From a virus (lineage: Duplodnaviria > Caudoviricetes), in the IMG/VR virus record IMGVR_UViG_3300009605_000095, positions 1 through 28,999 of that record: a DNA stretch of 28,999 bases; one strand, written 5' to 3'. A program made the translations under genes and the position numbers. Below, in pieces: positions 1 through 28,999 of the stretch (position 1 is its first letter; every line of letters begins with the position of its first letter). A model generated the notes under the pieces. It was not told where the DNA came from. It saw only the letters and a program-made list of their open reading frames with translations, and made no database searches.

Positions 1-300
1 CACGCTATTCTTAAAAAAACTGGGCTTCCTACTAAAGCTATTTCCAATGCAGTCTACTCATGTGGATATTGTCATAAGCTTTTCGCTAAAAAACCTACCC
101 GACGTTTTTGTAGAGAATGCTCCTCTTCTTATCTACTAGCTACGTATACCTGTGATGGTTGTGGTAATTCCTTTAAACGAAAACGCTCCCTACAAGAGAT
201 GAAAACGAATTCCCAAGGCCACAAACATATATTTTGTGGTAGACGCTGTTATCATGCATCCCGATTTTTAACTCATCCTGTAGAAAAAAGGTATTTTTGA
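1..300 (+). CDS. 5'-truncated zinc-finger protein (two Cys4 treble-clef/TRASH-like units)
   Basis: Manual translation, frame 1 open from window start to TGA 298-300: ...CGYCHKLF..RRFCREC...TCDGCGNSF...HIFCGRRC. Not in the ORF track because the start lies outside the window. Confidence 0.75.
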   Translation, partial: HAILKKTGLPTKAISNAVYSCGYCHKLFAKKPTRRFCRECSSSYLLATYTCDGCGNSFKRKRSLQEMKTNSQGHKHIFCGRRCYHASRFLTHPVEKRYF

Positions 301-306
301 TATTTA

Positions 307-335
307 TTGACAAAATCAATTAAATGGTTTACACT
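307..335 (+). promoter_or_regulatory. sigma70-type promoter upstream of Hsp20
   Basis: TTGACA (307-312), 17 bp spacer, TACACT (330-335). Confidence 0.8.
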
Positions 336-385
336 TAGTGTCAACTAATCAAGCAAAGATTAGAAAATATATAGGGGTGACAGTT

Positions 386-823
386 ATGTTGGCACGTAGA
401 AACAATAATCAGAGGTACAATCTCCTTCCGTTGATGGCACACTTCTTTCCCGAATATGGGGTTGAGTCATCTTTTTCAGATGAATCACGTAGTTATGTGA
501 TTCCAGTGGATTTAGTTTTCAATGACGAATATGTTACAGTTACAGCGTCACTACCGGGAGTATTGGTGGAGAATGTTGATGTGTCAGTAGAAAATGGAGT
601 TCTGACCATTAGCAACAAGACTGATGTTTTACCCACCGATACGCAAAAGGGGAGTTATGTTCTCAGGGAACGTGTTCAGGGTCTTTCCAGTCGTTCTATC
701 AGGCTACCAAAGGATGCTGATGTAGATAGTGCGGAAGTTTCTCTCAGGGAAGGGGTTTTAACCGTACAATTCAAGAATGGTCATCCACGGCAAGTGAAAT
801 CACTTCCAATTTCTACTAAGTAG
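386..823 (+). CDS. Small heat-shock protein (Hsp20/alpha-crystallin family)
   Basis: Motifs PVDL..., ASLPGV, DVSVENGVLTI, RER..G..SRSIRLP, GVLTV. ATG 386 follows AGGGGTGA and lies downstream of the promoter, so it is preferred over GTG 338. Confidence 0.9.
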   Translation: MLARRNNNQRYNLLPLMAHFFPEYGVESSFSDESRSYVIPVDLVFNDEYVTVTASLPGVLVENVDVSVENGVLTISNKTDVLPTDTQKGSYVLRERVQGLSSRSIRLPKDADVDSAEVSLREGVLTVQFKNGHPRQVKSLPISTK

Positions 824-826
824 AGT

Positions 827-852
827 ATAGGGGGATTTCTCCCCCTATTTTT
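827..852 (+). terminator. Rho-independent terminator after Hsp20
   Basis: Perfect 9-bp stem ATAGGGGGA / TCCCCCTAT, loop TTTC, followed by a T run. Confidence 0.85.
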
Positions 853-855
853 CTA

Positions 856-883
856 TTGACACCTAAATTTTTTATGGTATATT
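856..883 (+). promoter_or_regulatory. sigma70-type promoter driving the candidate ncRNA
   Basis: TTGACA (856-861), 16 bp spacer, extended -10 TGgTATATT (875-883). Confidence 0.75.
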
Positions 884-889
884 GTATCT

Positions 890-1235
890 AAAGGCACTTT
901 AAAAAGCTACTGCACACCCAAAACCCCGACAAGCACCCTGAAATAGTGGGTCACCTAAAACTCTGTGGGGCAGACCTAGACCTAAACAGAGAGGGTAAGT
1001 TGTTTAATAGCAGACCGTGGACGATGGGGAACTGGAGAATAGTAGAGTAATCTACACCTTGGTAAAGCGTCACCGGGGCAAGGCCAGAATTATCTGGATA
1101 ATCCAAAATGAGGCGGTTAAAACCTCAAATTGTTCCCAAAAACCTGATATAGCAGTAGCCTTTTTAAAGGAATATAAACTCTTTGGTTTTTCGTCAGGTT
1201 TTACAGGGGGGAACCTATGGTTAAAACCATATTAC
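890..1235 (+). ncRNA. Candidate large structured non-coding RNA of unknown class
   Basis: Own promoter and terminator; no convincing ORF; 17-bp closing helix 897-913 / 1152-1169 with one bulge; nested helices 961-966/986-991, 1027-1032/1132-1137, 1042-1055 (GUAA tetraloop), 1057-1078, 1084-1097, 1109-1127. Confidence 0.65.
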
Positions 1236-1240
1236 CTTAA

Positions 1241-1294
1241 TTAAAAAACTAGCTACTAATACTCAGTATTGTATTTTGGTAGCTAATTTTTTAA
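1241..1294. terminator. Probable bidirectional intrinsic terminator
   Basis: TTAAAAAA-C-TAGCTACTA ... TGGTAGCTA-A-TTTTTTAA imperfect inverted repeat with A and T tails. Confidence 0.65.
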
Positions 1295-1304
1295 ATTATG
1301 GATA

Positions 1305-1332
1305 TTGACAAAATAGTATTTCAGTTGATACT
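1305..1332 (+). promoter_or_regulatory. sigma70-type promoter for the small-ORF cluster
   Basis: TTGACA (1305-1310), 16 bp spacer, GATACT (1327-1332). Confidence 0.65.
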
Positions 1333-1359
1333 TAAAAATTAGAATTATAGGAACTACAA

Positions 1360-1524
1360 ATGTGGGATAAAAAGAAATGCTGTATATGTAATATAGACTT
1401 TGCATTACATCCTAAAGCCAAGACACTTTATACAAAACAATTATGTATAAAGTGTAGAAATATTAAGTGGACTATTCCAATGTGGAATAATGCTATTATA
1501 TCTGGAAAAAGACCTGTAATATAA
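1360..1524 (+). CDS. Small Cys4 zinc-finger protein (54 aa), not in ORF track
   Basis: MWDKKKCCICNIDF...QLCIKCRNIKW...; AGGA RBS at 1349-1352; stop TAA abuts the next ATG at 1525. Confidence 0.7.
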   Translation: MWDKKKCCICNIDFALHPKAKTLYTKQLCIKCRNIKWTIPMWNNAIISGKRPVI

Positions 1525-1857
1525 ATGAAAGTAGAAGTATATAGAAATTTACACAAGAATTGTTGGTCTATAAGAGACAATAAAACTGGTAGAGTGATAA
1601 GACATTCAAATAATATATCTTTAAAAGATGCTGAACTAGTGGTTAGGAAATCAGGTAGAGAGAAGGTATTATGTGAAAAGAGAAAAAATGTTCATGCTTT
1701 TATAAGAGGTACAATTGAATCTTACTCATACATACATAAGCAACAAATAGTATATAATCCGTACAAATATAAGTCCTTTGTGTTAATCGATTCATCAGAA
1801 CCTTTATTTTATGCAGACCATATTTATTTGAATGAGAAAGGAGAAGTTTGGAAATGA
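1525..1857 (+). CDS. Conserved phage hypothetical protein (VYRNLH..CWS...KRKNVHA type)
   Basis: 110-aa ORF coupled to neighbours; the motif pattern resembles a widespread uncharacterised phage family (recognition only). Confidence 0.8.
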   Translation: MKVEVYRNLHKNCWSIRDNKTGRVIRHSNNISLKDAELVVRKSGREKVLCEKRKNVHAFIRGTIESYSYIHKQQIVYNPYKYKSFVLIDSSEPLFYADHIYLNEKGEVWK

Positions 1858-2303
1858 CAACTGAAAAAAGAAGGGGCAGACCTAAAGGAAGCAAAAATAA
1901 ACCTAAAACATATAATCACGAATCCATTCAGAAAATTAAAGCTACCGTACCTGAAGAGTCTACTATAGTTAAAAAACGTGGAAGACCTCTAACTGAAGAT
2001 AAGAAAAATTTCATTCCTATTGATTCTGATGAAATAACTTTAGATATGTCCATTATCAGTAAACATATGGAAACTGGTGCTAAAAATTACATCAATTTAA
2101 CTAAAAATTTAGAGCTACATCCCTCAGACATCCCTATATTTGCAAGTTCTTATACTAAGTCGTATAATCACTCACCGGGATATGTGATAATAAACCCTAG
2201 AAATTACCATTTAATCTCTCACATAAAGAAAGAATTTCCTGATATTGGGGTAGGTTATTGTAAAGGAACTGCTTTATGGGAGTTGGTGTTTTGTTATAGT
2301 TGA
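1854..2303 (+). CDS. AT-hook DNA-binding protein
   Basis: KRRGRPKGSKNKPK and KKRGRP AT-hook cores; ATG 1854 overlaps the upstream TGA (ATGA) with AAGGAG upstream. Confidence 0.75.
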   Translation: MTTEKRRGRPKGSKNKPKTYNHESIQKIKATVPEESTIVKKRGRPLTEDKKNFIPIDSDEITLDMSIISKHMETGAKNYINLTKNLELHPSDIPIFASSYTKSYNHSPGYVIINPRNYHLISHIKKEFPDIGVGYCKGTALWELVFCYS

Positions 2304-2393
2304 CGTTTGAACCTAACTTCACTACAATATATACTAATTACCTTGCTAGGTAATAATTTTAGCTCACAATGTTTCTCGCTAGGAGACACTATT

Positions 2394-2618
2394 ATGGTAA
2401 ATGCTGGTGATAAATATACCCAATTAAAGTATCGGTGTATGAATTGTGACACACGATTCATAATTTGTACTACAACTCCTGAACTCTGGTCATCAAATTC
2501 AACTACTTGTCCAGATTGTTCTACCATTGGGAACTTTATAATTTGGCGTGAACTCAAAGACGGAGAAATCATTCAGGCTGTGCCGGGTGAAGGGGAATTA
2601 GTTTCTGTATCTGCCTAG
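2394..2618 (+). CDS. Small zinc-ribbon protein (74 aa)
   Basis: YRCMNC...TTCPDC; AGGAG RBS at 2381-2385 favours ATG 2394 over TTG 2307. Confidence 0.7.
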   Translation: MVNAGDKYTQLKYRCMNCDTRFIICTTTPELWSSNSTTCPDCSTIGNFIIWRELKDGEIIQAVPGEGELVSVSA

Positions 2619-2648
2619 TTTAAAAAATATAGTAAGTTTAAGAGTGTA

Positions 2649-2810
2649 ATGAGTAAAATTATTGAATTAACCTGTCCAAAATGTAATGAAAAACGTATGG
2701 GGTCTAAAAGAAATAAATATTCTTCCTCTTCTGTAATTTGCAAGAGATGCTGTCTCCTAAAGTCTAAAAGTGAATTTAAACTGGCTGGATATGGACGAGT
2801 AGCAGAATGA
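2649..2810 (+). CDS. Small Cys4 zinc-finger protein (53 aa), not in ORF track
   Basis: MSKIIELTCPKCNEKR...VICKRCCLLK...GRVAE*. Confidence 0.7.
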   Translation: MSKIIELTCPKCNEKRMGSKRNKYSSSSVICKRCCLLKSKSEFKLAGYGRVAE

Positions 2811-2829
2811 TTAATAAAAATAGAATCTA

Positions 2830-2858
2830 TTGACATATGTATTTTTTTAGTTTAGAAT
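2830..2858 (+). promoter_or_regulatory. sigma70-type promoter for the DUF932 gene
   Basis: TTGACA (2830-2835), 17 bp spacer, TAGAAT (2853-2858). Confidence 0.8.
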
Positions 2859-2892
2859 AATAAAAATAGAATTAGATGAAGGAGAGAAAAAC

Positions 2893-3918
2893 ATGCCAGC
2901 AAATTTAACAGTTAATGACCAAGGCCAAGCGGAGATGTTTTATACTGGGAAAGCCCCGTGGCATCGGATGGGAACTGCGGTTGAACATGCTCTTACAAGT
3001 GCTGATGCTATTACGGCGGCACATATGGATTGGAATGTACTGACCACCCCAATTCTTTATCGAGCTAGTTACACAAATATTCCTCAAGAAGTCCCTAATA
3101 AAGTTGCTGTAATTAGGGAAGATACTGGTGAAGTTTTCACAATTGCTTCTGATAGATATACTCCACTACCCAATAGGCAAGCGTTTGAATTTTTTGACTC
3201 TGTAGTTGGTGCTGGTCAAGCTATTTATCATACGGCTGGTACTATTAACGGTGGTCGTAAATTTTGGATTCTGGCTAAACTGGATGGAGAACTAAAAGTT
3301 ACCAATGAAGATATTCTTCACAAGTACATTTTGCTTGGTTCTTCCCATGATTCATCAATGCCATTATCAATGATGTTTACCACTGTGAGAGTTGTTTGCG
3401 ACAATACGTTTTCCCTAGCACTAAATCTAAACTCTACTGAAAATGAGATTAGATTCACAGCAAAACACACTCCAAATATTTCTCAGAAGGCGGTCAATGC
3501 TAGAAACACATTAGACCTAGCAAATGCTTATTTTGAGGATATGATGGTTGGGGTCAATAATCTAGTGGAACAGGAATGGGATTCATACGATATGCAGAGG
3601 TTTGTATATACCCTGTTTGACCTAGATGCTGAAAAATCAATTGATGAACAGCGTAGGGGTAAATCTTACTCCGCTGATAAAGTACTTAATCTATTCTCCA
3701 CTGGTAGAGGTAATGGATTGACTGGTGTGGCAAATACTAAATGGGCCGCTTTCAATGCTGTCACTGAATTTGCTGACTATAATCGCCCTGTTGGTCATAG
3801 AGTAGATTCTGGCGAAAGCCCTACTCTTGATGTTGCGGATAAGCGTCTAGATGATGCGTGGTACGGGCCGGGAGCCGCTTTGAAGCAAAGGGCTTGGGAT
3901 TTGCTTACTGTAAGGTAA
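2893..3918 (+). CDS. DUF932-family phage/plasmid protein
   Basis: PWHRMG, SDRYTPLPN, HTAG.I.GGR, SHD.S, VRVVCDNT, KHT, TKWAAFNAVTEFADY and K.RA motifs typical of the family; AAGGAG RBS. Confidence 0.85.
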   Translation: MPANLTVNDQGQAEMFYTGKAPWHRMGTAVEHALTSADAITAAHMDWNVLTTPILYRASYTNIPQEVPNKVAVIREDTGEVFTIASDRYTPLPNRQAFEFFDSVVGAGQAIYHTAGTINGGRKFWILAKLDGELKVTNEDILHKYILLGSSHDSSMPLSMMFTTVRVVCDNTFSLALNLNSTENEIRFTAKHTPNISQKAVNARNTLDLANAYFEDMMVGVNNLVEQEWDSYDMQRFVYTLFDLDAEKSIDEQRRGKSYSADKVLNLFSTGRGNGLTGVANTKWAAFNAVTEFADYNRPVGHRVDSGESPTLDVADKRLDDAWYGPGAALKQRAWDLLTVR

Positions 3919-3935
3919 TCTTTTTCCCATGTTCT

Positions 3936-3985
3936 TAGACTCATGGTGTAGGTATAGTTCACCTACACCATGAGTCTATATTTTT
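3936..3985 (+). terminator. Perfect 18-bp hairpin / terminator closing the early region
   Basis: TAGACTCATGGTGTAGGT (3936-3953), 7-nt loop, ACCTACACCATGAGTCTA (3961-3978), then TATTTTT. Confidence 0.8.
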
Positions 3986-4004
3986 GGGGGTATATCACTA
4001 ATAA

Positions 4005-5606
4005 ATGATACAGATTGATTACGATTGCCCACATTTTGTCTTAACCTTTCCATATAATCAATATGACCTTAAAACAGTTCGGGAATTACCATTACGAGAT
4101 TGGGTTAAATCTGATAAAGTTTGGAAAGTACCTCAACTAGCTGTTAAGACACTTGATAAACTTTCTGCTCAATGGACAGACGAAGCCCAAGCTGTAAGAA
4201 AATCTGTTGATGATGGTCTGATAGAGTTGATTGGGTATAAATTTGATGACTCTATTAAAGAACAGAGTGGTTCTCTTCTACGGCCCTATCAACAGATAGG
4301 AGTTAATTTTTTATCTAAGGCTAAAAAAGCACTTCTTGCAGATGAAATGGGATTGGGTAAGTCTCTCCAATCTATTAAAGTGATTGTAGACGCTAAATTG
4401 AACCGTAATCTTATTTTGTGTCCCTCAACACTGAAATTGAATTGGCTTAATGAGTTTGAGAAGCACTTTGGAATCAAGGCTGTGGTTATTTCGGGAACTA
4501 AGAAAAAACGTACTAAACAGTGGTCTAATAAAAAAATACGTTACGTAATCGCTAACTATGATTTGTTGAGACTCGATTGGGAAGTCATTCCGAAAGAGTG
4601 GGATTCTATAATTGCTGATGAGGTTGTTTATCTCAAACACAGTACATCGGCACGAACTAAATTAGCGAAGAAATTACAAAGTCCTATAAGATTAGCTTTA
4701 TCGGGGCTTCCATTGGAGAATAATTTAATGGAGTTCCAGTCTATAATGGAATGGGTTAGGCCCGAAATTGTACCCTCCGCATATAGATTTAAGCATCGAT
4801 ACGGTGTGTGGAATTATGGAGGTAAGTTAATCGGCTATAAAAATTTAGATGAACTCCATATGCTTACCAGTCCCTTTATTTTACGGAGAACAAAAGACCA
4901 AGTTCTACCTGAACTTCCACCGAAAATACATACTGACTTTCCATTGGAGATGACTACGGCAGTCTCTAAAGCCTACGATACTATTAAGAATGATTTTATA
5001 AAGTGGCTGAAGGGCGATGGTAAAGAAGCTTCAAATGTAAGTGTTTTAGAACAAACTATCCGTTTAAGGCAATTTGTTGAATTTCCTGAGAGTGTGGGGT
5101 TCACATCAGTTCCCAATTTAAAATTGGAGTGGGTGAAAGATACGTATCAAAATATACCCAAGATAGTTATTTTTACGTACTTTAAAGAATCTGTTAGATT
5201 ACTCCAAGAAGTCTTTGACGCTCAGTTTATTTTGACAGGGGATACGCCAGTAGAAGAACGATTCGATTTGATTGAGAGGTTTAATGCAGAACCTACTGGT
5301 ATGTTGATTATGACTGATGCTGGACGGTTTGGGCTGAATGTAACGGGTTGCTCGACAGTTATAAATTATGGAAATTATTATAATCCTGCAACGATGGCGC
5401 AACGTGAGGACAGGTTGCATAGATTAGGTCAAACTGATACTGTACATGTACTGAACCCTTATTTAGTAGGTACTGTGGATGAGGGTATAAGAAATATATT
5501 TTTGAAACGGGCTAACGATATTGAGGATTTTATTGAGGGTTCTGAAAGAGTTAGCATAGATAGAATGAATAGAACGGACTATGAAAGACTTGTGGTAGGG
5601 GGTTAG
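4005..5606 (+). CDS. SNF2-family (SF2) helicase/annealing ATPase with N-terminal HARP-like region
   Basis: LRPYQ, LLADEMGLGKS, ICPSTLKLNW, IIADEV, LSGLPLEN, FILRRTK, GLNVT, QREDRLHRLGQ. Confidence 0.92.
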   Translation: MIQIDYDCPHFVLTFPYNQYDLKTVRELPLRDWVKSDKVWKVPQLAVKTLDKLSAQWTDEAQAVRKSVDDGLIELIGYKFDDSIKEQSGSLLRPYQQIGVNFLSKAKKALLADEMGLGKSLQSIKVIVDAKLNRNLILCPSTLKLNWLNEFEKHFGIKAVVISGTKKKRTKQWSNKKIRYVIANYDLLRLDWEVIPKEWDSIIADEVVYLKHSTSARTKLAKKLQSPIRLALSGLPLENNLMEFQSIMEWVRPEIVPSAYRFKHRYGVWNYGGKLIGYKNLDELHMLTSPFILRRTKDQVLPELPPKIHTDFPLEMTTAVSKAYDTIKNDFIKWLKGDGKEASNVSVLEQTIRLRQFVEFPESVGFTSVPNLKLEWVKDTYQNIPKIVIFTYFKESVRLLQEVFDAQFILTGDTPVEERFDLIERFNAEPTGMLIMTDAGRFGLNVTGCSTVINYGNYYNPATMAQREDRLHRLGQTDTVHVLNPYLVGTVDEGIRNIFLKRANDIEDFIEGSERVSIDRMNRTDYERLVVGG

Positions 5607-14220: not shown

Positions 14221-14569
14221 GTATAAATTTATAGACTTATCTTTGCTGGGTGGTTCTGCGTCAGTCATTGATGCATTTAATGAACAGGGCGGTATTGGGT
14301 GGGAATTGGTATCGGTTGTGGGTGGTGTTGGGTATTTTAAACGGTCATCAAATAATGGGTTTGATTCAACAACGGTTTCTGTTAGTGCTGGTGAAGATTC
14401 ATCTAGTATGACTATTATCACTACTGATAATGTATCGGGTGAAGAGGTTCTGTTGGAAGAGAAAGAACCACCAAAGCGTCGAATTGGAAGACCCCCCAGA
14501 GAAGACCGACAAGTCGGGGTTTTGTTAGCAGAAGATTCTATAATGCCTTCACCTGAAAGTATTCAATAA
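14207..14569 (+). CDS. DUF4177-like domain protein with C-terminal AT-hook-like motif
   Basis: YEYKF...FNEQGGIGWELVSV....YFKR; KRRIGRPP; GAGGGAGG RBS before ATG 14207. Confidence 0.65.
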   Translation: MITYEYKFIDLSLLGGSASVIDAFNEQGGIGWELVSVVGGVGYFKRSSNNGFDSTTVSVSAGEDSSSMTIITTDNVSGEEVLLEEKEPPKRRIGRPPREDRQVGVLLAEDSIMPSPESIQ

Positions 14570-14570
14570 T

Positions 14571-14861
14571 TTGAAACCCCGTGATTTTACGGTTCAAGAA
14601 AATAATATAGCGGAAATTCTATCTGACTTAGGTTTACGCTATGAGCAACAATACTCTATAGGCTCTAGAACAGTTGATTTTTATTTGCATGAAATGAACA
14701 GTGTTATCGAGGCTGATGGAGTATATGGTCATTTAAGAAAGTCTGATAGAAAAAGAGATTTAGAATTGATGAGTTTGGGTGTAAAGAATATTTTTCATAT
14801 AAGCGACTCTACTAAACCCAAAATACTTAATACATTGGCAGGTATATTTTGTCAGGGATAA
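14571..14861 (+). CDS. Vsr/DUF559-like endonuclease
   Basis: E..IAEIL..LG..YEQQ...VDFY....VIEADG.YGH...D.KRD..L...G. Confidence 0.8.
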   Translation: MKPRDFTVQENNIAEILSDLGLRYEQQYSIGSRTVDFYLHEMNSVIEADGVYGHLRKSDRKRDLELMSLGVKNIFHISDSTKPKILNTLAGIFCQG

Positions 14862-15550
14862 AATCAATACTACGTCAGAGGGAACATAGAGAACCTCTGA
14901 TAACAAAACATGATGAATGGCTAGTTAAAGAGATTGATAGGCATTTAACCTCTACCTCTGACCAACGACCTCCATCCAAACATATTTTTTATCCTTCGTT
15001 TTTAGGGTCTACGTGTGATAGGTTGCTATACTTACATTATAATGGTCTACTTCCAAACCCTAAATTTGATTCTAAAACCCTTAGAATTTTCGCTCATGGT
15101 CATGCGACTGAAGCTAGGTATAAGGATATTTTTTCCAAAATGCGAATTTTATCTGGTGATGAAATTCAGACTCGTTATGATAATCCTTGTATTCATGGGA
15201 GGGCTGATTTCATACTGAATTTTCCTGAGTTTGGTAGAGCTATTGTTGAGTTGAAAACTATTAATGAGAGAGGTTTTTCTAATTTATCTGTACCAAAATC
15301 AGACCATGCTATTCAAATTCAAATATATTTAAACATACTGAATATAGATAATGGGTTTGTCTTGTACGAATGTAAGAATGACCAACAATTAAAGTCCTTT
15401 CATATTAAACGGTCTTCCTCTGAATGGGACTCGATTATAGAAAGATGTATTAAAATACAAAATATGACTGTTGTTCCAAAATTAGCTACTATCACACATG
15501 AGAAATGGTGCAATTGTTTAGATGTAAAAGAAGAGTTAGAGAATGCTTGA
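14849..15550 (+). CDS. Cas4-like PD-(D/E)XK exonuclease (no adjacent CRISPR)
   Basis: PS...CDR, G...E, GRAD, VELKT, QIQIYL, C-terminal WCNC. Confidence 0.8.
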   Translation: MSGIKSILRQREHREPLITKHDEWLVKEIDRHLTSTSDQRPPSKHIFYPSFLGSTCDRLLYLHYNGLLPNPKFDSKTLRIFAHGHATEARYKDIFSKMRILSGDEIQTRYDNPCIHGRADFILNFPEFGRAIVELKTINERGFSNLSVPKSDHAIQIQIYLNILNIDNGFVLYECKNDQQLKSFHIKRSSSEWDSIIERCIKIQNMTVVPKLATITHEKWCNCLDVKEELENA

Positions 15551-20108: not shown

Positions 20109-22400
20109 ATGGAGAATTTGGCATTGGATTATGTATCCCCTGTAACTGTGAATGGGTTGCAAATTTTAAAGAGTAGGTATTTTTTAAAGAATCCTGATGG
20201 TTCGTTGAAGGAAAACACTCCAGATGAATTATTTACACGGGTGGCGTTTGCTGTTTCTAATGCTGAAGAAGATTCTGAGTATTGGGGGAATCGCTATAAG
20301 GAAGAGTTACTGACTCCGCTTATTTTTCTTCCTAATTCTCCAGTGTTAATGAATATGGGAACTGGTGCTGGAACAGGCTCTGCATGTTATGTTGTGAACC
20401 TTGAGGACAGTATGAGTTCTATCATGCAAACGGCTTATGATGCTGCCATGATAGAAAAATATGGTGGTGGAATAGGTTTTTCTCTTTCTGATATTCGTCC
20501 TAAAGGATTTCCGATAACTACGACTCATGGAAAGGCGTGTGGCCCCATTGCTGTTTTGCGTATGCTTTCTGAGGTAGGCACGATGATTACTCAGGGTGGC
20601 AAACGTGATGGCGCACATATGGGTGTACTAGAGGTTTATTCTCCTGATATAGAAGAATTTATTGGTTGTAAGACTACTGAAGGTAAAATTCATAATTTCA
20701 ATATCTCTGTTGGTGTAGATAAGAATTTTATTGATGCTGTGAAGGCAGATGAATATTTGCATTTGACTTGGCCTATGTGTCGTGAACGGCATCCTGTGAA
20801 GACCTCTGAAAATGGTATGGGTCAGTCTATGGATTGGGATACGTGTGGTAGAGTTGAAGGGAAATTAATTCGGGCTAGAGAAGTGTTTTCTAAAATCATT
20901 CATGGGGCATGGTTAAATGGGGAGCCGGGTATGGTTTGGCTTGACCGTATGAATGAAGATAACACGACTCCAGAATTAGGAACTATCAAGGCTACAAATC
21001 CATGTGGAGAACAACCTCTCCTATCCTCTGAGTCGTGTAATTTGGGTAGTATAGACCTATCTAAATTAGTGGTTGATGGAGAATTTGATTTTGAACATTA
21101 TAGAGAAGTCATCCAGTTAGCGACTCGCTTTTTAGATAACGTAATAGATGTAAATATTCATCCCACTAAAGAAACTTCTGAGATGAATAAAAAGACCCGA
21201 AAAATCGGGTTAGGTGTCATGGGTTTTGCAGATATGCTAATCCAGATAGGTGTTCCGTATGATACTGAGGAATCCGTTGAGTGGGCTATGAAATTAGGGG
21301 CTATATTAGAGGAAGAGTCTGATGCTTCATCTTGTCTTTTAGGGAGAGAGAAGGGAGATTTTCCTGCGTTTGATGAAAGTCCATTGAATGTTAAGCATGG
21401 TGGGGAATGGGAACATATGCGTAATGCATGGCGAAGGTCGATTGCTCCTACTGGAACTATCTCCATGATTGCAAATTGTTCTTCTGGAATTGAGCCTTTG
21501 TTTGATTTGGCTTTTAAAAAGCACAATTTATCTGCTGCACTTGAGGGAGTAGAACTTTATTATATACACGAAGATTTGAAGAATCGTGTTTCTCATCTAT
21601 TTGATAACAATGGAAATTCTATTGAGAAATATATTTCTGAGGGTCATGATGTTAAAGATTTGCTCTCTGATTCCCATGAGCGAAGTTTATTTGTTACGTC
21701 TAGTGAGATTGATTATAAATGGCATATTAATATTCAAGCTATGTGGCAGAATTATATTGATTCTGGTGTAAGTAAAACCATTAATCTTCCCAATTGTGCC
21801 ACAGAGCAAGATATTTGGGATGCTTATATGATGGCTGGAGATTTAAAGTGTAAGGGAATTACAGTTTATCGTTCAGGTAGTCGTGAACGAGAAGTATTGG
21901 TTTCCTCTGTAGGAGATAATACTGGGACTTCTTCTAGTAATGATGTATTAGTTCGACCTGAATCAGTGCAAGGCGTGACTTCTAGGATTACCACAGGTCA
22001 TGGGAAACTTTTCATGACATTGAATTCTAACAACGGGAATCCATTTGAAGTATTTTCTCAAATAGGGAAATCTGGTCAATGCGATGCGGCCTATCTAGAA
22101 GCTATTTCACGATTGGTTTCGTTATGTTTGAGAAATAAAATAATGCCTGAAACAATTCATCAACAATTGAATGGCATAGTTTGTTGTCCTGTATGGAGTG
22201 AGGGAACACAAGTTCATTCTGTTCCTGATGCCATTGCTTTAGGGTTGAAAACTCATTTTATTGATATTCATGACGGTGTTTCTATATCTTCAAATGGTAA
22301 GCTAGGGTTTGGTAGCACATGCCCAGAATGTGGTACTACAACTGTATTTTCTGAGGGTTGCATAACATGCAATTCTTGTGGTTGGTCTAAGTGTAGCTAG
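20109..22400 (+). CDS. nrdJ: Class II (adenosylcobalamin-dependent) ribonucleotide reductase
   Basis: PNSP, SAC, GGGIG, TNPCGEQPL, SCNLGS, R.IGLGVMG, IAPTGTIS, SKTINLP, KGITVYR; C-terminal TSCPD-like domain and CPEC..C..C.WSKC. Confidence 0.95.
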   Translation: MENLALDYVSPVTVNGLQILKSRYFLKNPDGSLKENTPDELFTRVAFAVSNAEEDSEYWGNRYKEELLTPLIFLPNSPVLMNMGTGAGTGSACYVVNLEDSMSSIMQTAYDAAMIEKYGGGIGFSLSDIRPKGFPITTTHGKACGPIAVLRMLSEVGTMITQGGKRDGAHMGVLEVYSPDIEEFIGCKTTEGKIHNFNISVGVDKNFIDAVKADEYLHLTWPMCRERHPVKTSENGMGQSMDWDTCGRVEGKLIRAREVFSKIIHGAWLNGEPGMVWLDRMNEDNTTPELGTIKATNPCGEQPLLSSESCNLGSIDLSKLVVDGEFDFEHYREVIQLATRFLDNVIDVNIHPTKETSEMNKKTRKIGLGVMGFADMLIQIGVPYDTEESVEWAMKLGAILEEESDASSCLLGREKGDFPAFDESPLNVKHGGEWEHMRNAWRRSIAPTGTISMIANCSSGIEPLFDLAFKKHNLSAALEGVELYYIHEDLKNRVSHLFDNNGNSIEKYISEGHDVKDLLSDSHERSLFVTSSEIDYKWHINIQAMWQNYIDSGVSKTINLPNCATEQDIWDAYMMAGDLKCKGITVYRSGSREREVLVSSVGDNTGTSSSNDVLVRPESVQGVTSRITTGHGKLFMTLNSNNGNPFEVFSQIGKSGQCDAAYLEAISRLVSLCLRNKIMPETIHQQLNGIVCCPVWSEGTQVHSVPDAIALGLKTHFIDIHDGVSISSNGKLGFGSTCPECGTTTVFSEGCITCNSCGWSKCS

Positions 22401-25170: not shown

Positions 25171-25198
25171 TGTTTTTTAAGCTTTTTTGGGATGGCTT

Positions 25199-28100
25199 AT
25201 GCCACAAATACATAATATTCGGGTCAATAATTCCAGCTATAGGGTTGAAGTAGCAAACACTCCTCACCTCACTAGTCTTGGATTGTCTTTTAGAACGCAT
25301 CTCCCATCTAATGGAGGGATGCTTTTTGTTTTTCCAGATGAGGTTAATCGTATATTTCATATGAGAAATATGAAGATTCCTTTGGACATTATTTTTATTG
25401 GGGCTGATAAACGAGTCAAATGGATTATCGAGAATGCTCAACCTGATAATGAGCGTTTGGTTTCTTTGCGTCCATCTAAATATGTTTTGGAAGTTAATGC
25501 TGGAGATGTAAAGAAAAACAGTATCAGTATGCATTCAAAACTGGATACACTAAATAACCCTCTGATAAAGTCTTCAGATACATTAGAAGGATGGATACAG
25601 AAGCAAGATGGTGGTGGTGATGGTGGTGGTTTTTCTGGTACTGCACATACATCAGAAGGAACCAATACTTTCACTCGTACATTTGGCCCTAGTAAAGATA
25701 ATAAAAAACCGTGGGCAGGGAAGAAGAAAAAGAACTGGGCTAAGATTTTAACGTCTGCTCCTGATGAAGAACATATAACTGTAGCCATGCTTAATGAGTG
25801 GCTTGAGAAACAAGAAAGAGATATTCCTTCAGAGATGCGGAGAAGGGGATTAGAGCCGAAGACAGGGGATTGGGAGCATCCGTATCGGTGGGTTCGTAGT
25901 ATCGACTCGTCTACACTATCTCCACCTGAAAAGATACAGTCTATAATCGAATCTGCACCTGATTTGAAACATGTGTTGGATAGTTTATCTGAGGTCGGAC
26001 AACCTTATTTAGTTGGTGGTTGTGTTAGAGACATTTTGATAGGCAAGGATTGTAAGGACTTTGATATTGAGATGTATGGAGTCCCACAAGATGAATTAGG
26101 GGAACTCATACAGAGTAGATTTGGAGGAAGTTCAGAACAAGTTGGTAAGCAATTTGGTGTGTTTAAGGTTGGGGATTTTGATATTTCTCTTCCACGAACT
26201 GAGACACAAACTGGGGAGAAACATACTGATTTTGATGTAGTACCAGACCATACTCTTGACCCTATGACTGCTGCCAGACGTAGGGATTTCACCATTAATG
26301 CGATGATGTATGATGTAAAAGAGGGTACTATACTTGATTTCTTTGGAGGTGAAGAAGACCTTAGTAATGGGCTGATTAAACATATTGATGATGAGACTTT
26401 TGTAGAAGACCCATTGAGAGTTTATCGTGCCGCACAGTTTGCTGCCAGATTTGGGTTTAATATTGACCCATCTACCCAAGAATTAGCATCTCAAATGGAT
26501 TTATCTAAGCTCCCTATAGAGAGGGTTAACGAAGAATTCACTAAGATGTTATTGAAGTCAGACACTCCATCTATTGGTTTGGATGCTTTGAGTGAGATGG
26601 GGGTATTGTCAAGATATTTTCCAGAGATAGCTATTTTGGATGAGACTCCTCAACGTGATGATTATCATGCAGAAGGCGATGTATTCATACATACTAAGAT
26701 GGTGCTTGATAGGGCTACGGATGTTATAAAGAGGTTCCCTTCAGACAAAGAAAAAATTACTATCATGTTGGCATCATTATGTCATGACCTTGGTAAACCA
26801 AGTACTACAGAATACCATTCAGATGGGTCAGTTTCTCAACATGGGCATGAAGCGGCTGGTATAGACCCCACTAGGTCATTTTTATCTAAATTGACCAGAG
26901 AGGTTGATTTGATTAATGATGTTGAATTTTTGGTTGAGAATCATCTTCTTCCTCCGAATTATTTTAGGAGTAAAACATCGGATGCTACGTTTAGGAAATT
27001 AATCAATCGTTATGGTATGCGAAGGCTAAAACTTTTATCCGCTGTTTCTGAGGCCGATATTCTTGGACGTTTGAATCGGGCCGAAGATGGGGGAATAGAA
27101 GAACCCGATAATGATGCTACTGAATGGTTTAATTTGAGATTGGATGAAGTAGCTGAAAAATCTAACCTAACTCTTGAAGGTACTATAAAACCTTTGATAA
27201 CTGGTCATGAATTGAAAGACATGGGTTTTACAGAGGGGAGAGAATTAGGAGATATTCTCAGAGATATTAAATCTCATCAAGAGACAGGGCAAATAGCTGA
27301 TTCATCTGAAGCCACTGAGTATGTACGAAATAAATATATGAGTAAGGGTCTTGGTGATTTGGTGGATTGGCTATTCAAAGCTGTATCTTCTGAATCAATA
27401 GCAGAAGCAAAGAGGAAAGGTTTGGTTCCTCAGTCTGGTGACTGGATTCGTCCCAAACGGTGGGTTCGGCCTGAAGACGCTGATGTTGTTGTTGAGGAAC
27501 CAGATGCTCCACGAGTTTATTCGTATGATGAAGTTAAAAAATTTGTGGAAGATAAAGTCTCTATTAATTTTGATTTTAATGAAAAGCAAAAACAACACGG
27601 CACATGGGCTGGTAGCGAAGAGTATAAACTTGCCTATGACCAAATTGAGGACATAATAGAAGTAGTTGTTGGCTCTTTTGACGGAGGTGAGGAAGGCCCA
27701 ACTCCTAAACATGTTTATGAGGGATTTGGGGAACCTAAGAGAGATAGACTGCATAGGCCAGTTGGGGGGAGAGAAGGGAAAAGAAATATACCTAAATGGC
27801 AATTAGATAGGTTTATAGGTAATTTTCAGTTAGAGTGGGATGAATCTCCCGGCGATTCCGATATGAAAACGAGAACAGGTGGTGAGTTTAGTGGGGTTGC
27901 TGCTCATTGTGATGTAGATAGTAATATAGTTCTTTGGAGAACAAAAAATCATGTTACATATGGGCAACAATATCCTGCTACAAGACACCAACATCTTGCT
28001 GAAATTGTGGTACATGAGTTAGGTCATGCTATAGTTTCTGATATGAGAGATGATGTTCCATCTTGGGTTACGGCGCATTTACGAAATGCTTATTCTAATG

Positions 28101-28999
28101 CTGTTGAATCAGGAAAAGGGTTTGTATCTAAGTATTCTACAGTGGATTCAAATGAGTTTTTTGCAGAATCCTTTAAGACATATATATCAAAAACTGATTT
28201 ATTAGAACGGACTAATCCTGAGATATTTGAGTTACTAGAAATATTAAATCAAGCTGATTCATTGGACTCTTTGCATAGACCGTTTACTGAAGAAGAGTTT
28301 GATAAATACGATTTAAAAAATATGTTTTCTCTTGCTTCTAAAGAATTTAAGCTTGCTTTTGAGCGATTTGAATATCATCTTGGTAGAGATTCTAGAAATA
28401 CAGGAGAAGAAGACATTGAAAAACGAAGAAAGCAAGTTGTAATAAACCTTTCTAACAATGTTCGTAACTCTATTGGTATGGGCCTTACTAAAGAAGATTT
28501 GATGGGACACTTACAAAGTCGAATAGAGTCTCAAGAACAAGTTAATCAAAGCATGAAAGGAATGCAAGAAAGAATAGATACGCTACCAGAATCAATGAGG
28601 GAAGTGGTTGAGTCATGGGAATTTAAAACTTATGACGAATTTTATCCGAATGTTAGACCAGTATATGAAGAAATAATTGATTCGGTTATTTCTACGTATT
28701 ATCCAGATTATGGAAATGTAGAGCCGTGGATTTCTATGTATGGACGAAAAGATGTAGATATTAAGAAACAGTCTTCCCATACATTTAAACCAATGGAAAG
28801 AAAAGACCTAAGTAAAATTGATGACCCAATAGAGATTGGTAATCCTGTTGATGAAGAATCTATACGTGAAGCATCCGAATTTATTAGGGAGCAAAAAGAG
28901 AAACAACTTTCGGATGATGAGTCTCTAGAAAAAGCTGTTTCTACTGAATCCATTGCTTCTGCAAAACGTAGGGGTCTTATACCGCAGTCTGGTGACTGG
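25199..28999 (+). CDS. 3'-truncated multidomain polyprotein: DUF192 + CCA-adding tRNA nucleotidyltransferase/HD + anthrax-LF-like zinc metalloprotease, joined by repeated peptide linkers
   Basis: Manual translation: ATG 25199 (in-frame TAA at 25178), no stop through 28999 (1267 codons). DUF192: VEVANT...GLSFR..GMLFVF...HMRNMKIPLDIIFI...YVLEVNAG. CCA: LVGGCVRD, DFD, RRDFTINA, EDPLR, CHDLGK. Protease: HELGH...SKY...NEFFAESF. Confidence 0.9.
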   Translation, partial: MPQIHNIRVNNSSYRVEVANTPHLTSLGLSFRTHLPSNGGMLFVFPDEVNRIFHMRNMKIPLDIIFIGADKRVKWIIENAQPDNERLVSLRPSKYVLEVNAGDVKKNSISMHSKLDTLNNPLIKSSDTLEGWIQKQDGGGDGGGFSGTAHTSEGTNTFTRTFGPSKDNKKPWAGKKKKNWAKILTSAPDEEHITVAMLNEWLEKQERDIPSEMRRRGLEPKTGDWEHPYRWVRSIDSSTLSPPEKIQSIIESAPDLKHVLDSLSEVGQPYLVGGCVRDILIGKDCKDFDIEMYGVPQDELGELIQSRFGGSSEQVGKQFGVFKVGDFDISLPRTETQTGEKHTDFDVVPDHTLDPMTAARRRDFTINAMMYDVKEGTILDFFGGEEDLSNGLIKHIDDETFVEDPLRVYRAAQFAARFGFNIDPSTQELASQMDLSKLPIERVNEEFTKMLLKSDTPSIGLDALSEMGVLSRYFPEIAILDETPQRDDYHAEGDVFIHTKMVLDRATDVIKRFPSDKEKITIMLASLCHDLGKPSTTEYHSDGSVSQHGHEAAGIDPTRSFLSKLTREVDLINDVEFLVENHLLPPNYFRSKTSDATFRKLINRYGMRRLKLLSAVSEADILGRLNRAEDGGIEEPDNDATEWFNLRLDEVAEKSNLTLEGTIKPLITGHELKDMGFTEGRELGDILRDIKSHQETGQIADSSEATEYVRNKYMSKGLGDLVDWLFKAVSSESIAEAKRKGLVPQSGDWIRPKRWVRPEDADVVVEEPDAPRVYSYDEVKKFVEDKVSINFDFNEKQKQHGTWAGSEEYKLAYDQIEDIIEVVVGSFDGGEEGPTPKHVYEGFGEPKRDRLHRPVGGREGKRNIPKWQLDRFIGNFQLEWDESPGDSDMKTRTGGEFSGVAAHCDVDSNIVLWRTKNHVTYGQQYPATRHQHLAEIVVHELGHAIVSDMRDDVPSWVTAHLRNAYSNAVESGKGFVSKYSTVDSNEFFAESFKTYISKTDLLERTNPEIFELLEILNQADSLDSLHRPFTEEEFDKYDLKNMFSLASKEFKLAFERFEYHLGRDSRNTGEEDIEKRRKQVVINLSNNVRNSIGMGLTKEDLMGHLQSRIESQEQVNQSMKGMQERIDTLPESMREVVESWEFKTYDEFYPNVRPVYEEIIDSVISTYYPDYGNVEPWISMYGRKDVDIKKQSSHTFKPMERKDLSKIDDPIEIGNPVDEESIREASEFIREQKEKQLSDDESLEKAVSTESIASAKRRGLIPQSGDW
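25799..25897 (+). repeat. Polyprotein linker repeat, copy 1
   Basis: WLEKQERDIPSEMRRRGLEPKTGDWEHPYRWVR. Confidence 0.8.
27368..27469 (+). repeat. Polyprotein linker repeat, copy 2
   Basis: WLFKAVSSESIAEAKRKGLVPQSGDWIRPKRWVR. Confidence 0.9.
28925..28999 (+). repeat. Polyprotein linker repeat, copy 3 (cut by window end)
   Basis: LEKAVSTESIASAKRRGLIPQSGDW; CAGTCTGGTGACTGG identical at 27431-27445 and 28985-28999. Confidence 0.9.

Follow-up and report, generated by a model that had tools for sequence, protein, structure and literature searches.

EGFOA (RF02955) is a catalogued orphan RNA family for which the accessible papers hold two cryo-EM structures and no published function. The two RNAs oligomerize in vitro, as a trimer and as a strand-swapped dimer, and the available part of the report (bioRxiv 10.64898/2026.07.01.735769) calls EGFOA putative small RNAs in large gene-free regions. 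This was the one relevant paper retrieved for EGFOA or RF02955, and its available part gives no function; the string 'EGF' is absent from the main text of PMC5737381. ARRPOF is described as pseudoknotted and dimeric in the available parts of PMC5737381 and PMC12990946. According to the available portions of PMC4412123, PMC3167613, and PMC3640518, an rG/dC stretch is essential for the ColE1 R-loop, and RNase H and Pol I make and extend the ColE1 primer, exposing the PriA site, near which a DnaA box is located.

This study analyzed a stretch of virus DNA of 28,999 nucleotides (hereafter the window), a linear IMG/VR virus record that is 37% complete and whose DNA is present in marine metagenome runs. 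EGFOA was already known as an orphan family, of which the window copy is a long variant. New here are a corrected fold, a longer family extent, and a replication-primer hypothesis to which we give about even chances.

Genomic setting and assignment to EGFOA

The EGFOA element is flanked on one side by an Hsp20 gene and on the other by an arm with genes for an SNF2-type helicase, DnaB, a primase, a family-A polymerase, a RecA-like protein, a terminase, and a portal protein (Table 1). The family-A polymerase, DnaB, and primase of the window phage are encoded downstream of the RNA element on the same strand, and a terminator-like hairpin and a new promoter lie between the element and the next gene. 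Protein and pattern searches yielded eight distinct relatives, which together with the window form a clade of nine sequences. The near-consensus promoter proposed by the initial annotation was confirmed, its TTGACA being invariant in this clade; the promoter listing contained no minus-strand promoter within 890-1240. Elsewhere in the window, an ORF of >1,270 aa at 25187-28999 combines DUF192, a CCA-adding/poly(A) polymerase head, and an HD domain, a fusion unusual for a phage. A Rieske-like motif was recognized by eye in the ORF upstream of Hsp20 on the near-identical longer contig L002 (~3360-4490).

Table 1. Features of the window around the EGFOA element
Feature	Position	Strand	Basis
Hsp20 gene, separate unit upstream of the RNA	386-823	+	PF00011, E 4e-13; same synteny in relatives
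Terminator-like hairpin closing the Hsp20 unit	827-848	+	Sequence scan
Sigma-70-type promoter of the RNA (predicted)	856-883	+	11/12 consensus bases, with TG; -35 invariant in 9/9
Long EGFOA-family RNA, predicted transcript, conserved extent	890-1226	+	Identity 43-50% at 1227-1240
Outer stem, 5' strand, pairs with 1152-1169	897-913	+	Covariation count
Pseudoknot 2, 5' strand, pairs with 1074-1078	924-928	+	Double change in L327; six word variants among 85 listed loci
Clade-specific insertion: hairpin 935-951, stems 953-955/994-996 and 961-966/986-991	935-996	+	Helix model
Pseudoknot 1, 5' strand, bulged G at 1019, pairs with 1068-1073	1017-1023	+	Three double changes in L327
Multi-way junction	1027-1137	+	1027-1032/1132-1137, 1033-1036/1102-1105, hairpins 1042-1055 and 1084-1097, variable hairpin 1109-1127
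EGFOA signature stem-loop, stem 1057-1061/1079-1083; loop holds GUAAAG and both pseudoknot 3' strands	1057-1083	+	
10-bp long-range helix 1139-1148/1193-1202, crosses the outer stem	1139-1202	+	100% paired, 9/10 pairs invariant
G6 run; predicted R-loop nucleation site	1206-1211	+	G5-G6 in 9/9 clade sequences; G5 in 31/61 clusters
AT-richest 134-nt stretch of the window; possible unwinding element	1216-1350	.	GC 21%
Terminator-like hairpin, conserved arms	1241-1294	+	Clade alignment

The element at 890-1226 is a real structured element. Over segments from 895 to 1226, identity was 87-97% in six relatives, compared with 77-80% for the Hsp20 gene, and it was 75-95% in L327, the most distant relative. 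The earlier claim of a promoter-flanked, non-coding structured element, here one under selection, is backed by this difference in identity and by 12 doubly changed base pairs. In the six relatives, identity fell to 43-50% at 1227-1240; the conserved element extends beyond the outer stem to approximately 1226, which does not confirm the proposed span of 890-1235. The 75-aa ORF in the region had been dismissed as not credible, and its reading frame is broken in seven of the nine clade copies and intact only in the window and a 99.6% twin, which upholds the gene-free location. The element had also been described as GC-richer than its flanks; its GC content of 43% exceeds that of the promoter (24%) and of the sequence just downstream (22%), but not that of the Hsp20 gene (44%).

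The initial annotation regarded the RNA as an undescribed class. No family matched the window at gathering score in the Rfam search, and only a weak EGFOA match was obtained at 970-1097 (23.8 bits, E 0.039; gathering threshold 37.7 bits); the clade relative L327 scored 30.0 bits. As had been claimed, no signature of tRNA, tmRNA, RNase P, SRP, or 6S RNA was detected; neither these models nor those of GOLLD, ROOL, ARRPOF, and known ribozymes matched the window. BLAST of the window RNA or its homologues against cultured phages returned nothing real, and the L223 query returned no plasmid match. A model was then trained on 44 cores, none of them from the clade of the window, after 9 of 53 candidates had been left out of the alignment; its single match in the window was at 1012-1097 (37.4 bits, E 1.8e-8), and the next-best score was 5.9 bits. 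This region is the core of the catalogued family.

The EGFOA loop motif was searched in viral, genome, and metagenome collections. Among the 234 unselected motif matches listed, a partner complementary to the match's own loop triplet was found upstream in 30 and downstream in 2. Over all scans, among the matches listed, the pseudoknot 1 partner was present in 103 of 362 (3 in the control) and the second partner also in 85, two of these scans having pre-selected part of the upstream word. The 18 loci with pseudoknot 1 but no exact pseudoknot 2 were dropped, and a contig from run X15 with a changed loop triplet, whose pairing partner lies near the contig end, was left out of the counts. On these counts, the EGFOA loop makes two stacked pseudoknots. 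Pairing of pseudoknot 1 in the core alignment is 100% by selection, and the nearly selection-free evidence consists of the closing stem and the upstream/downstream count over the 234 matches. The EGFOA cut-off was passed by 12 of 20 such loci and by 2 of 20 and 5 of 18 in other batches, and the double-pseudoknot pairings of the window also occur in members above that cut-off.

The window contains the signature stem-loop GGUAAAGC-NNN-ACC-N-GGGC with its closing stem and, in order and complementary to the loop, the CCGU-x-NNNG and CCCNG segments (924-928 and 1015-1023). The window element is almost certainly an EGFOA member, and it is filed as a variant because its long 5' insertion is penalized in the Rfam score. 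It shares with EGFOA the CCGU-x-NNNG segment, the GGUAAAGC-NNN-ACC-N-GGGCA stem-loop, the gene-free site, and the stand-alone arrangement. It differs in its length (~335 nt, compared with the 108-position Rfam model) and in having an extra ~75-nt insertion, the outer stem, and a 3' G-run domain; the RF02955 consensus line shows neither pseudoknot.

Fold of the window RNA

The covariation that the initial annotation had proposed to look for among homologues was found. A 13-helix model was 98.8% paired over the nine clade sequences and contained the 12 doubly changed pairs, a number that none of 500 shuffles reached; 8 of the 12 come from L327 alone. The seven helices drawn originally were 96.4% paired with five doubly changed pairs, and most of them were retained. 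The 17-bp outer stem was 95.9% paired with one double change, and the CAC...AAAAA.CT motif of its 5' strand also occurs 5' of the core in 7 of 61 clusters. The CTCTGT/ACAGAG and GGGAAC/GTTCCC helices were both 100% paired and nearly invariant, and the GTAGA/TCTAC and CCAGA/TCTGG hairpins each showed two double changes. The remaining two helices did not hold. The TGAGG/CCTCA helix was just 79% paired, with a shifting hairpin register, and CCTTGGT/ACCGGGG was in the wrong register, its four outer pairs being present in only 16, 31, 28, and 7 of 61 clusters. The pairs of the correct closing stem, CCTTG/CAAGG, were present in 61, 61, 60, 49, and 40 of 61 clusters; the third of these, which no search pattern fixed, occurs as four pair types in its 60 clusters.

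Two covarying pseudoknots had been missed. The spacing of the pseudoknot partners is 92 nt in the window, compared with 11-20 nt in many members. The folding-energy check that had been suggested gave modest results: the z-score was -1.3 for 890-1235, where 9 of 100 shuffles did equally well, compared with -2.4 for 895-1172 and -0.3 in the interior. Support for the structure therefore comes from covariation and not from folding energy. The long-range helix 1139-1148/1193-1202 has no covariation support because nine of its ten pairs are invariant. A helix joining the 5' and 3' termini (891-894/1214-1217) looked compensatory in L003 and was rejected, being broken in L333, L279, and L327. Two GGTTTT copies in 1184-1202, nearly invariant in the nine sequences, can each pair with the A-rich strand 1138-1148; these copies may form a switch or a U-A-U triple helix.

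Downstream signals and carriers of the family

Conservation in the window ends where an A-run follows the G6 run at 12 nt, and 30 nt separate the G-run from the start of the terminator-like hairpin. This hairpin had been called a terminator. With its T tail, it is present in all eight clade sequences reaching it, but the terminator scanner did not list it. Its arm sequence is kept in eight relatives while its loop varies, and one arm repeats seven bases of the outer stem of the RNA; on this pattern, it may serve as a protein-binding palindrome or take part in an alternative pairing. The low GC content of 1216-1350 is also expected of a terminator-promoter gap. Neither a primosome-like hairpin nor a DnaA box was found in window positions 1-4000; the hairpin pattern for that scan was shaped on family hits, and weight was therefore put on the ColE1-derived tests. 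A likeness to the ColE1 origin was also seen at the 3' end of the window element (score 22, equaled by 2 of 2000 shuffles); because this comparison was picked after the likeness had been noticed and is not family-wide, little weight is given to it. GC skew showed no switch at the EGFOA site; it follows the gene strand and is uninformative.

Across the family, 31 of 61 clusters have a G5 run at a distance of 20-170 nt downstream of the core, compared with 5-8 of 46-60 in six other intervals, and 11 of the 61 clusters have no G4 run. The G5 run is usually located in the 3' arm of a pyrimidine/G-rich hairpin. Because a U-tract follows this hairpin in only 1 of 32 cases, the hairpin is not an intrinsic terminator. 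Positions 1326-1365 of ColE1, which we take to be the n'-pas primosome assembly site, were compared as a 40-mer; in 12 of 45 clusters, it reached a score of at least 18 in the downstream sense strand, compared with 4, 0, and 4 in three controls (p 0.015, 0.002), and one of 44 control 40-mers also reached seven hits of at least 20. The hairpin top of the ColE1 40-mer, GCGNAGC, was present downstream on the sense strand in 15 of 48 clusters (33 had none), compared with 3 on the antisense strand, 3 of 46 in the upstream sequence, and 5 of 43 farther downstream. Among clusters of low GC content, the corresponding counts were 7 of 27 and 0, 0, and 1. The sense strand is the one that an R-loop displaces.

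In the ColE1 record NC_001371.1, a G6 hairpin is located at 1175, an A-run at 1193, and a DnaA box at 1271, and GAGCGTAGC occurs once, at 1332. The ColE1 origin 34-mer was not enriched downstream of EGFOA (p 0.08, 0.25), nor were DnaA boxes enriched family-wide (3 of 48 compared with 0-2). The whole window RNA aligned with ColE1 no better than shuffles did, and the EGFOA core model had no match in ColE1. The ColE1 likeness is therefore an analogy and not homology.

A circular 29.8-kb Brevibacillus plasmid, NZ_CP144923.1, with no replicon type and no Rep match carries EGFOA (61.9 bits), a G6 run, GAGCGTAGC ~130 nt later, and a DnaA box, all upstream of traX and parA. Part of this region recurs in nine Paenibacillus plasmid records, four of which were examined. 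An alignment of five Paenibacillaceae plasmids shows a common module consisting of a G-tract, a hairpin whose stem covaries, and two DnaA-box-like sequences placed head to head; the same module was recognized by eye in a stretch of a P. larvae plasmid. In the Brevibacillus, P. durus, and P. urinalis plasmids, EGFOA (62-64 bits) is located immediately upstream of the module, and a different long RNA-like segment occupies the EGFOA slot in the plasmids of P. brasilensis (RepA) and P. peoriae (no Rep found). Of the three circular EGFOA plasmids, two had no Rep by annotation or Pfam, among them the 15-kb P. durus plasmid, which carries Zot, and the third had a Pfam RepA; the absent-Rep results rest on libraries that leave most ORFs unnamed, and an NCBIfam scan missed the RepA positive control. 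The P. urinalis plasmid (50 of 62 kb seen) has RepA with iterons. A GC-rich segment of ~650 nt is found in the EGFOA slot at L497 ~20450-21050 (+) and L495 ~14350-14950 (-) (NZ_CP045297.1, NZ_CP061174.1). It had no credible Rfam match and no EGFOA-core match, and this Paenibacillus plasmid segment may be an uncatalogued primer RNA.

In five Bacillales genomes, EGFOA was surrounded by integrases or resolvases in all five and by excisionase-type HTH_17 genes in four; no Rep or primase family was found among 94 ORFs near these chromosomal copies. One Peribacillus island contains two EGFOA copies 1.6 kb apart (L488 ~9317 and 10934). Neighbors of EGFOA in phages and related loci encode RNase H, DnaA N-terminal-domain proteins (three clusters), a polymerase exonuclease, a helicase, and Cas4-like nucleases; Pol III alpha is a neighbor in three related loci. 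Other phage neighbors are endolysins, a baseplate gene, and, in three loci, adjacent terminase genes. In a complete 46-kb phage, EGFOA, RNase H, and a DnaA_N protein follow in a row, and no primase, helicase, or polymerase match was obtained among its 48 mostly unnamed ORFs. A second complete EGFOA phage encodes DnaB and SSB and had no primase match among 46 ORFs, most of them unnamed. The complete 46-kb EGFOA phage G011 encodes a TROVE/Ro60-like protein at L502 5926-7371 (-). EGFOA variants in the large phage fragments L004, L014, L018, and L020 adjoin a T4-type baseplate gene (named in L004 and L018). Three cluster representatives of these variants have no G-run, and the variants are possibly a functionally different subtype.

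Candidate functions and comparison with known systems

The family layout, consisting of a core, a G-run hairpin, a primosome-like hairpin, and a DnaA-box pair, is that of the ColE1 origin, and the primer reading is based on it. In our preferred reading, which we put at even odds, the predicted window transcript (890-1226) would act as a ColE1-style primer that forms an R-loop at its 3' G-run and starts phage DNA replication. Taken separately, a primer role is somewhat favored for the EGFOA family and has at best an equal chance for the window copy. Host RNA polymerase would transcribe from 856-883, and the EGFOA core would fold co-transcriptionally, leaving the G-rich 3' end available for re-invasion of the C-rich template. 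An RNA 3' end ~12-20 nt past the G-run would then be produced by RNase H or by release of the polymerase; a family-A polymerase would extend this primer, exposing the non-template strand, onto which a helicase would then load. Loading in plasmids and islands would proceed through a PriA-type hairpin or DnaA boxes, and the DnaB and primase of the window phage would load at the AT-rich tract, as at T4 oriF/oriG.

Several findings were counted against the primer reading. The window has a hairpin after its G-run and its own primase, with neither a primosome-like hairpin nor a DnaA box; one EGFOA plasmid (P. urinalis) has RepA with iterons; terminases adjoin three phage loci; only a minority of clusters show the downstream signals; and no transcript was seen. 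On this last point, no RNA run was among those listed as carrying the DNA and one metatranscriptome gave 0 contigs, results that weigh in neither direction. The primosome-like hairpin and the DnaA box would be dispensable for a phage that encodes DnaB and primase itself, which is an excuse and not evidence. In its widest form, EGFOA would be a protein-free replicon, a double-pseudoknot primer serving Gram-positive plasmids, 5-7 kb islands, inovirus-like elements, and tailed phages, unrelated in sequence to RNA II and interchangeable with the uncatalogued ~650-nt RNA; we rate this slightly below an even chance. Literature searches for Gram-positive plasmids that are RNA-primed and independent of Rep, and for Paenibacillus replicons, which covered titles and abstract openings mostly outside subscription papers, returned nothing on this subject.

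Among the roles listed in the initial annotation, a scaffold is still a rival. A free trans-acting structured RNA, possibly oligomeric, that serves as a scaffold or protein decoy early in infection is unlikely but agrees with the window element having its own promoter and terminator-like hairpin, with the TROVE/Ro60-like protein of one EGFOA phage, and with the EGFOA trimer and strand-swapped dimer in the available part of the cryo-EM report (bioRxiv 10.64898/2026.07.01.735769). Such a role leaves unexplained the strand-specific downstream hairpins, the DnaA-box pairs, and the absent U-tail after the G hairpin, and the loci share no protein partner.

There is only a slim chance that the structure acts as single-stranded DNA, that is, as a single-strand origin. 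EGFOA does occur in conjugative plasmids and in Zot-bearing inovirus-like elements, which pass through single-stranded DNA, and its downstream hairpins resemble DNA signals; such screens cannot separate single-stranded DNA from RNA, as stated in the available part of PMC5737381. However, the promoter is conserved, and EGFOA also occurs in tailed double-stranded DNA phages. Among 49 tetraloops, 22 were GNRA and none was a reverse complement, which fixes the strand and favors RNA, and G-U wobbles are frequent. In two conjugative plasmids, EGFOA lies on the tra coding strand, presumably not the transferred strand by analogy with F.

More doubtful still is a role in phage packaging or in the cis-regulation of downstream genes. 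Terminase genes are adjacent in three phage loci, same-strand downstream genes of named function are DNA-metabolism genes, and EGFOA oligomerizes in vitro (bioRxiv 10.64898/2026.07.01.735769, available part); against this, some of the plasmids and islands that carry EGFOA have no annotated terminase, the gene that follows is frequently encoded on the other strand, and the next gene of the window is set apart from the element by a terminator-like hairpin and a new promoter. A self-cleaving or self-processing ribozyme with the GUAAAG loop and bulged pseudoknot as its active site is the least credible reading, since the invariant unpaired bases around a compact double pseudoknot are set against the lack of any ribozyme-family match and a bulged base that varies among the 85 listed loci (C 67, G 14, A 3, T 1); nothing found points to the ribozyme or antitoxin role suggested earlier, although ribozyme activity would be compatible with the primer model if it made the 3' end.

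The layout found here suggests a job for EGFOA. If true, the primer reading would place an RNA-primed replicon outside the ColE1 family, would account for circular Paenibacillaceae plasmids without a replicon type, and could make EGFOA a small vector origin that needs no Rep. Should the proposed function prove wrong, the family still has approximately three times the length of its Rfam model, along with two pseudoknots absent from the consensus line.

Compared with known systems, GOLLD and ROOL are likewise ornate phage-borne RNAs that oligomerize, but their solved forms are 550-830 nt and often lie within tRNA arrays (PMC12990946, available part), whereas the window has no tRNA and matched neither model. 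ARRPOF, GEBRO, and PAGEV are structured motifs of 223-349 nt tied to plasmid replication (PMC5737381 and PMC12990946, available parts); none of these models matched the window. T4 oriF/oriG resemble the window in combining a promoter with an AT-rich tract downstream of it, in a phage that encodes helicase and primase itself, and the G-run and AT-rich stretch at 1216-1350 would fit a promoter-plus-unwinding-element origin as for T4, but no folded RNA family is described at T4 origins in the available part of PMC4412123. The window differs from ColE1 in having no sequence or core homology, neither the downstream hairpin nor the DnaA box, an added terminator-like hairpin, and, in contrast to antisense control by RNA I, no antisense promoter listed inside the RNA. 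In common with ColE1 RNA II (NC_001371.1), it has a promoter-driven structured RNA (predicted here), a G6 hairpin, and an A-run 12-13 nt later, and its EGFOA relatives share with ColE1 a GCGTAGC-topped hairpin and a DnaA box on the same strand ~120-160 nt on.
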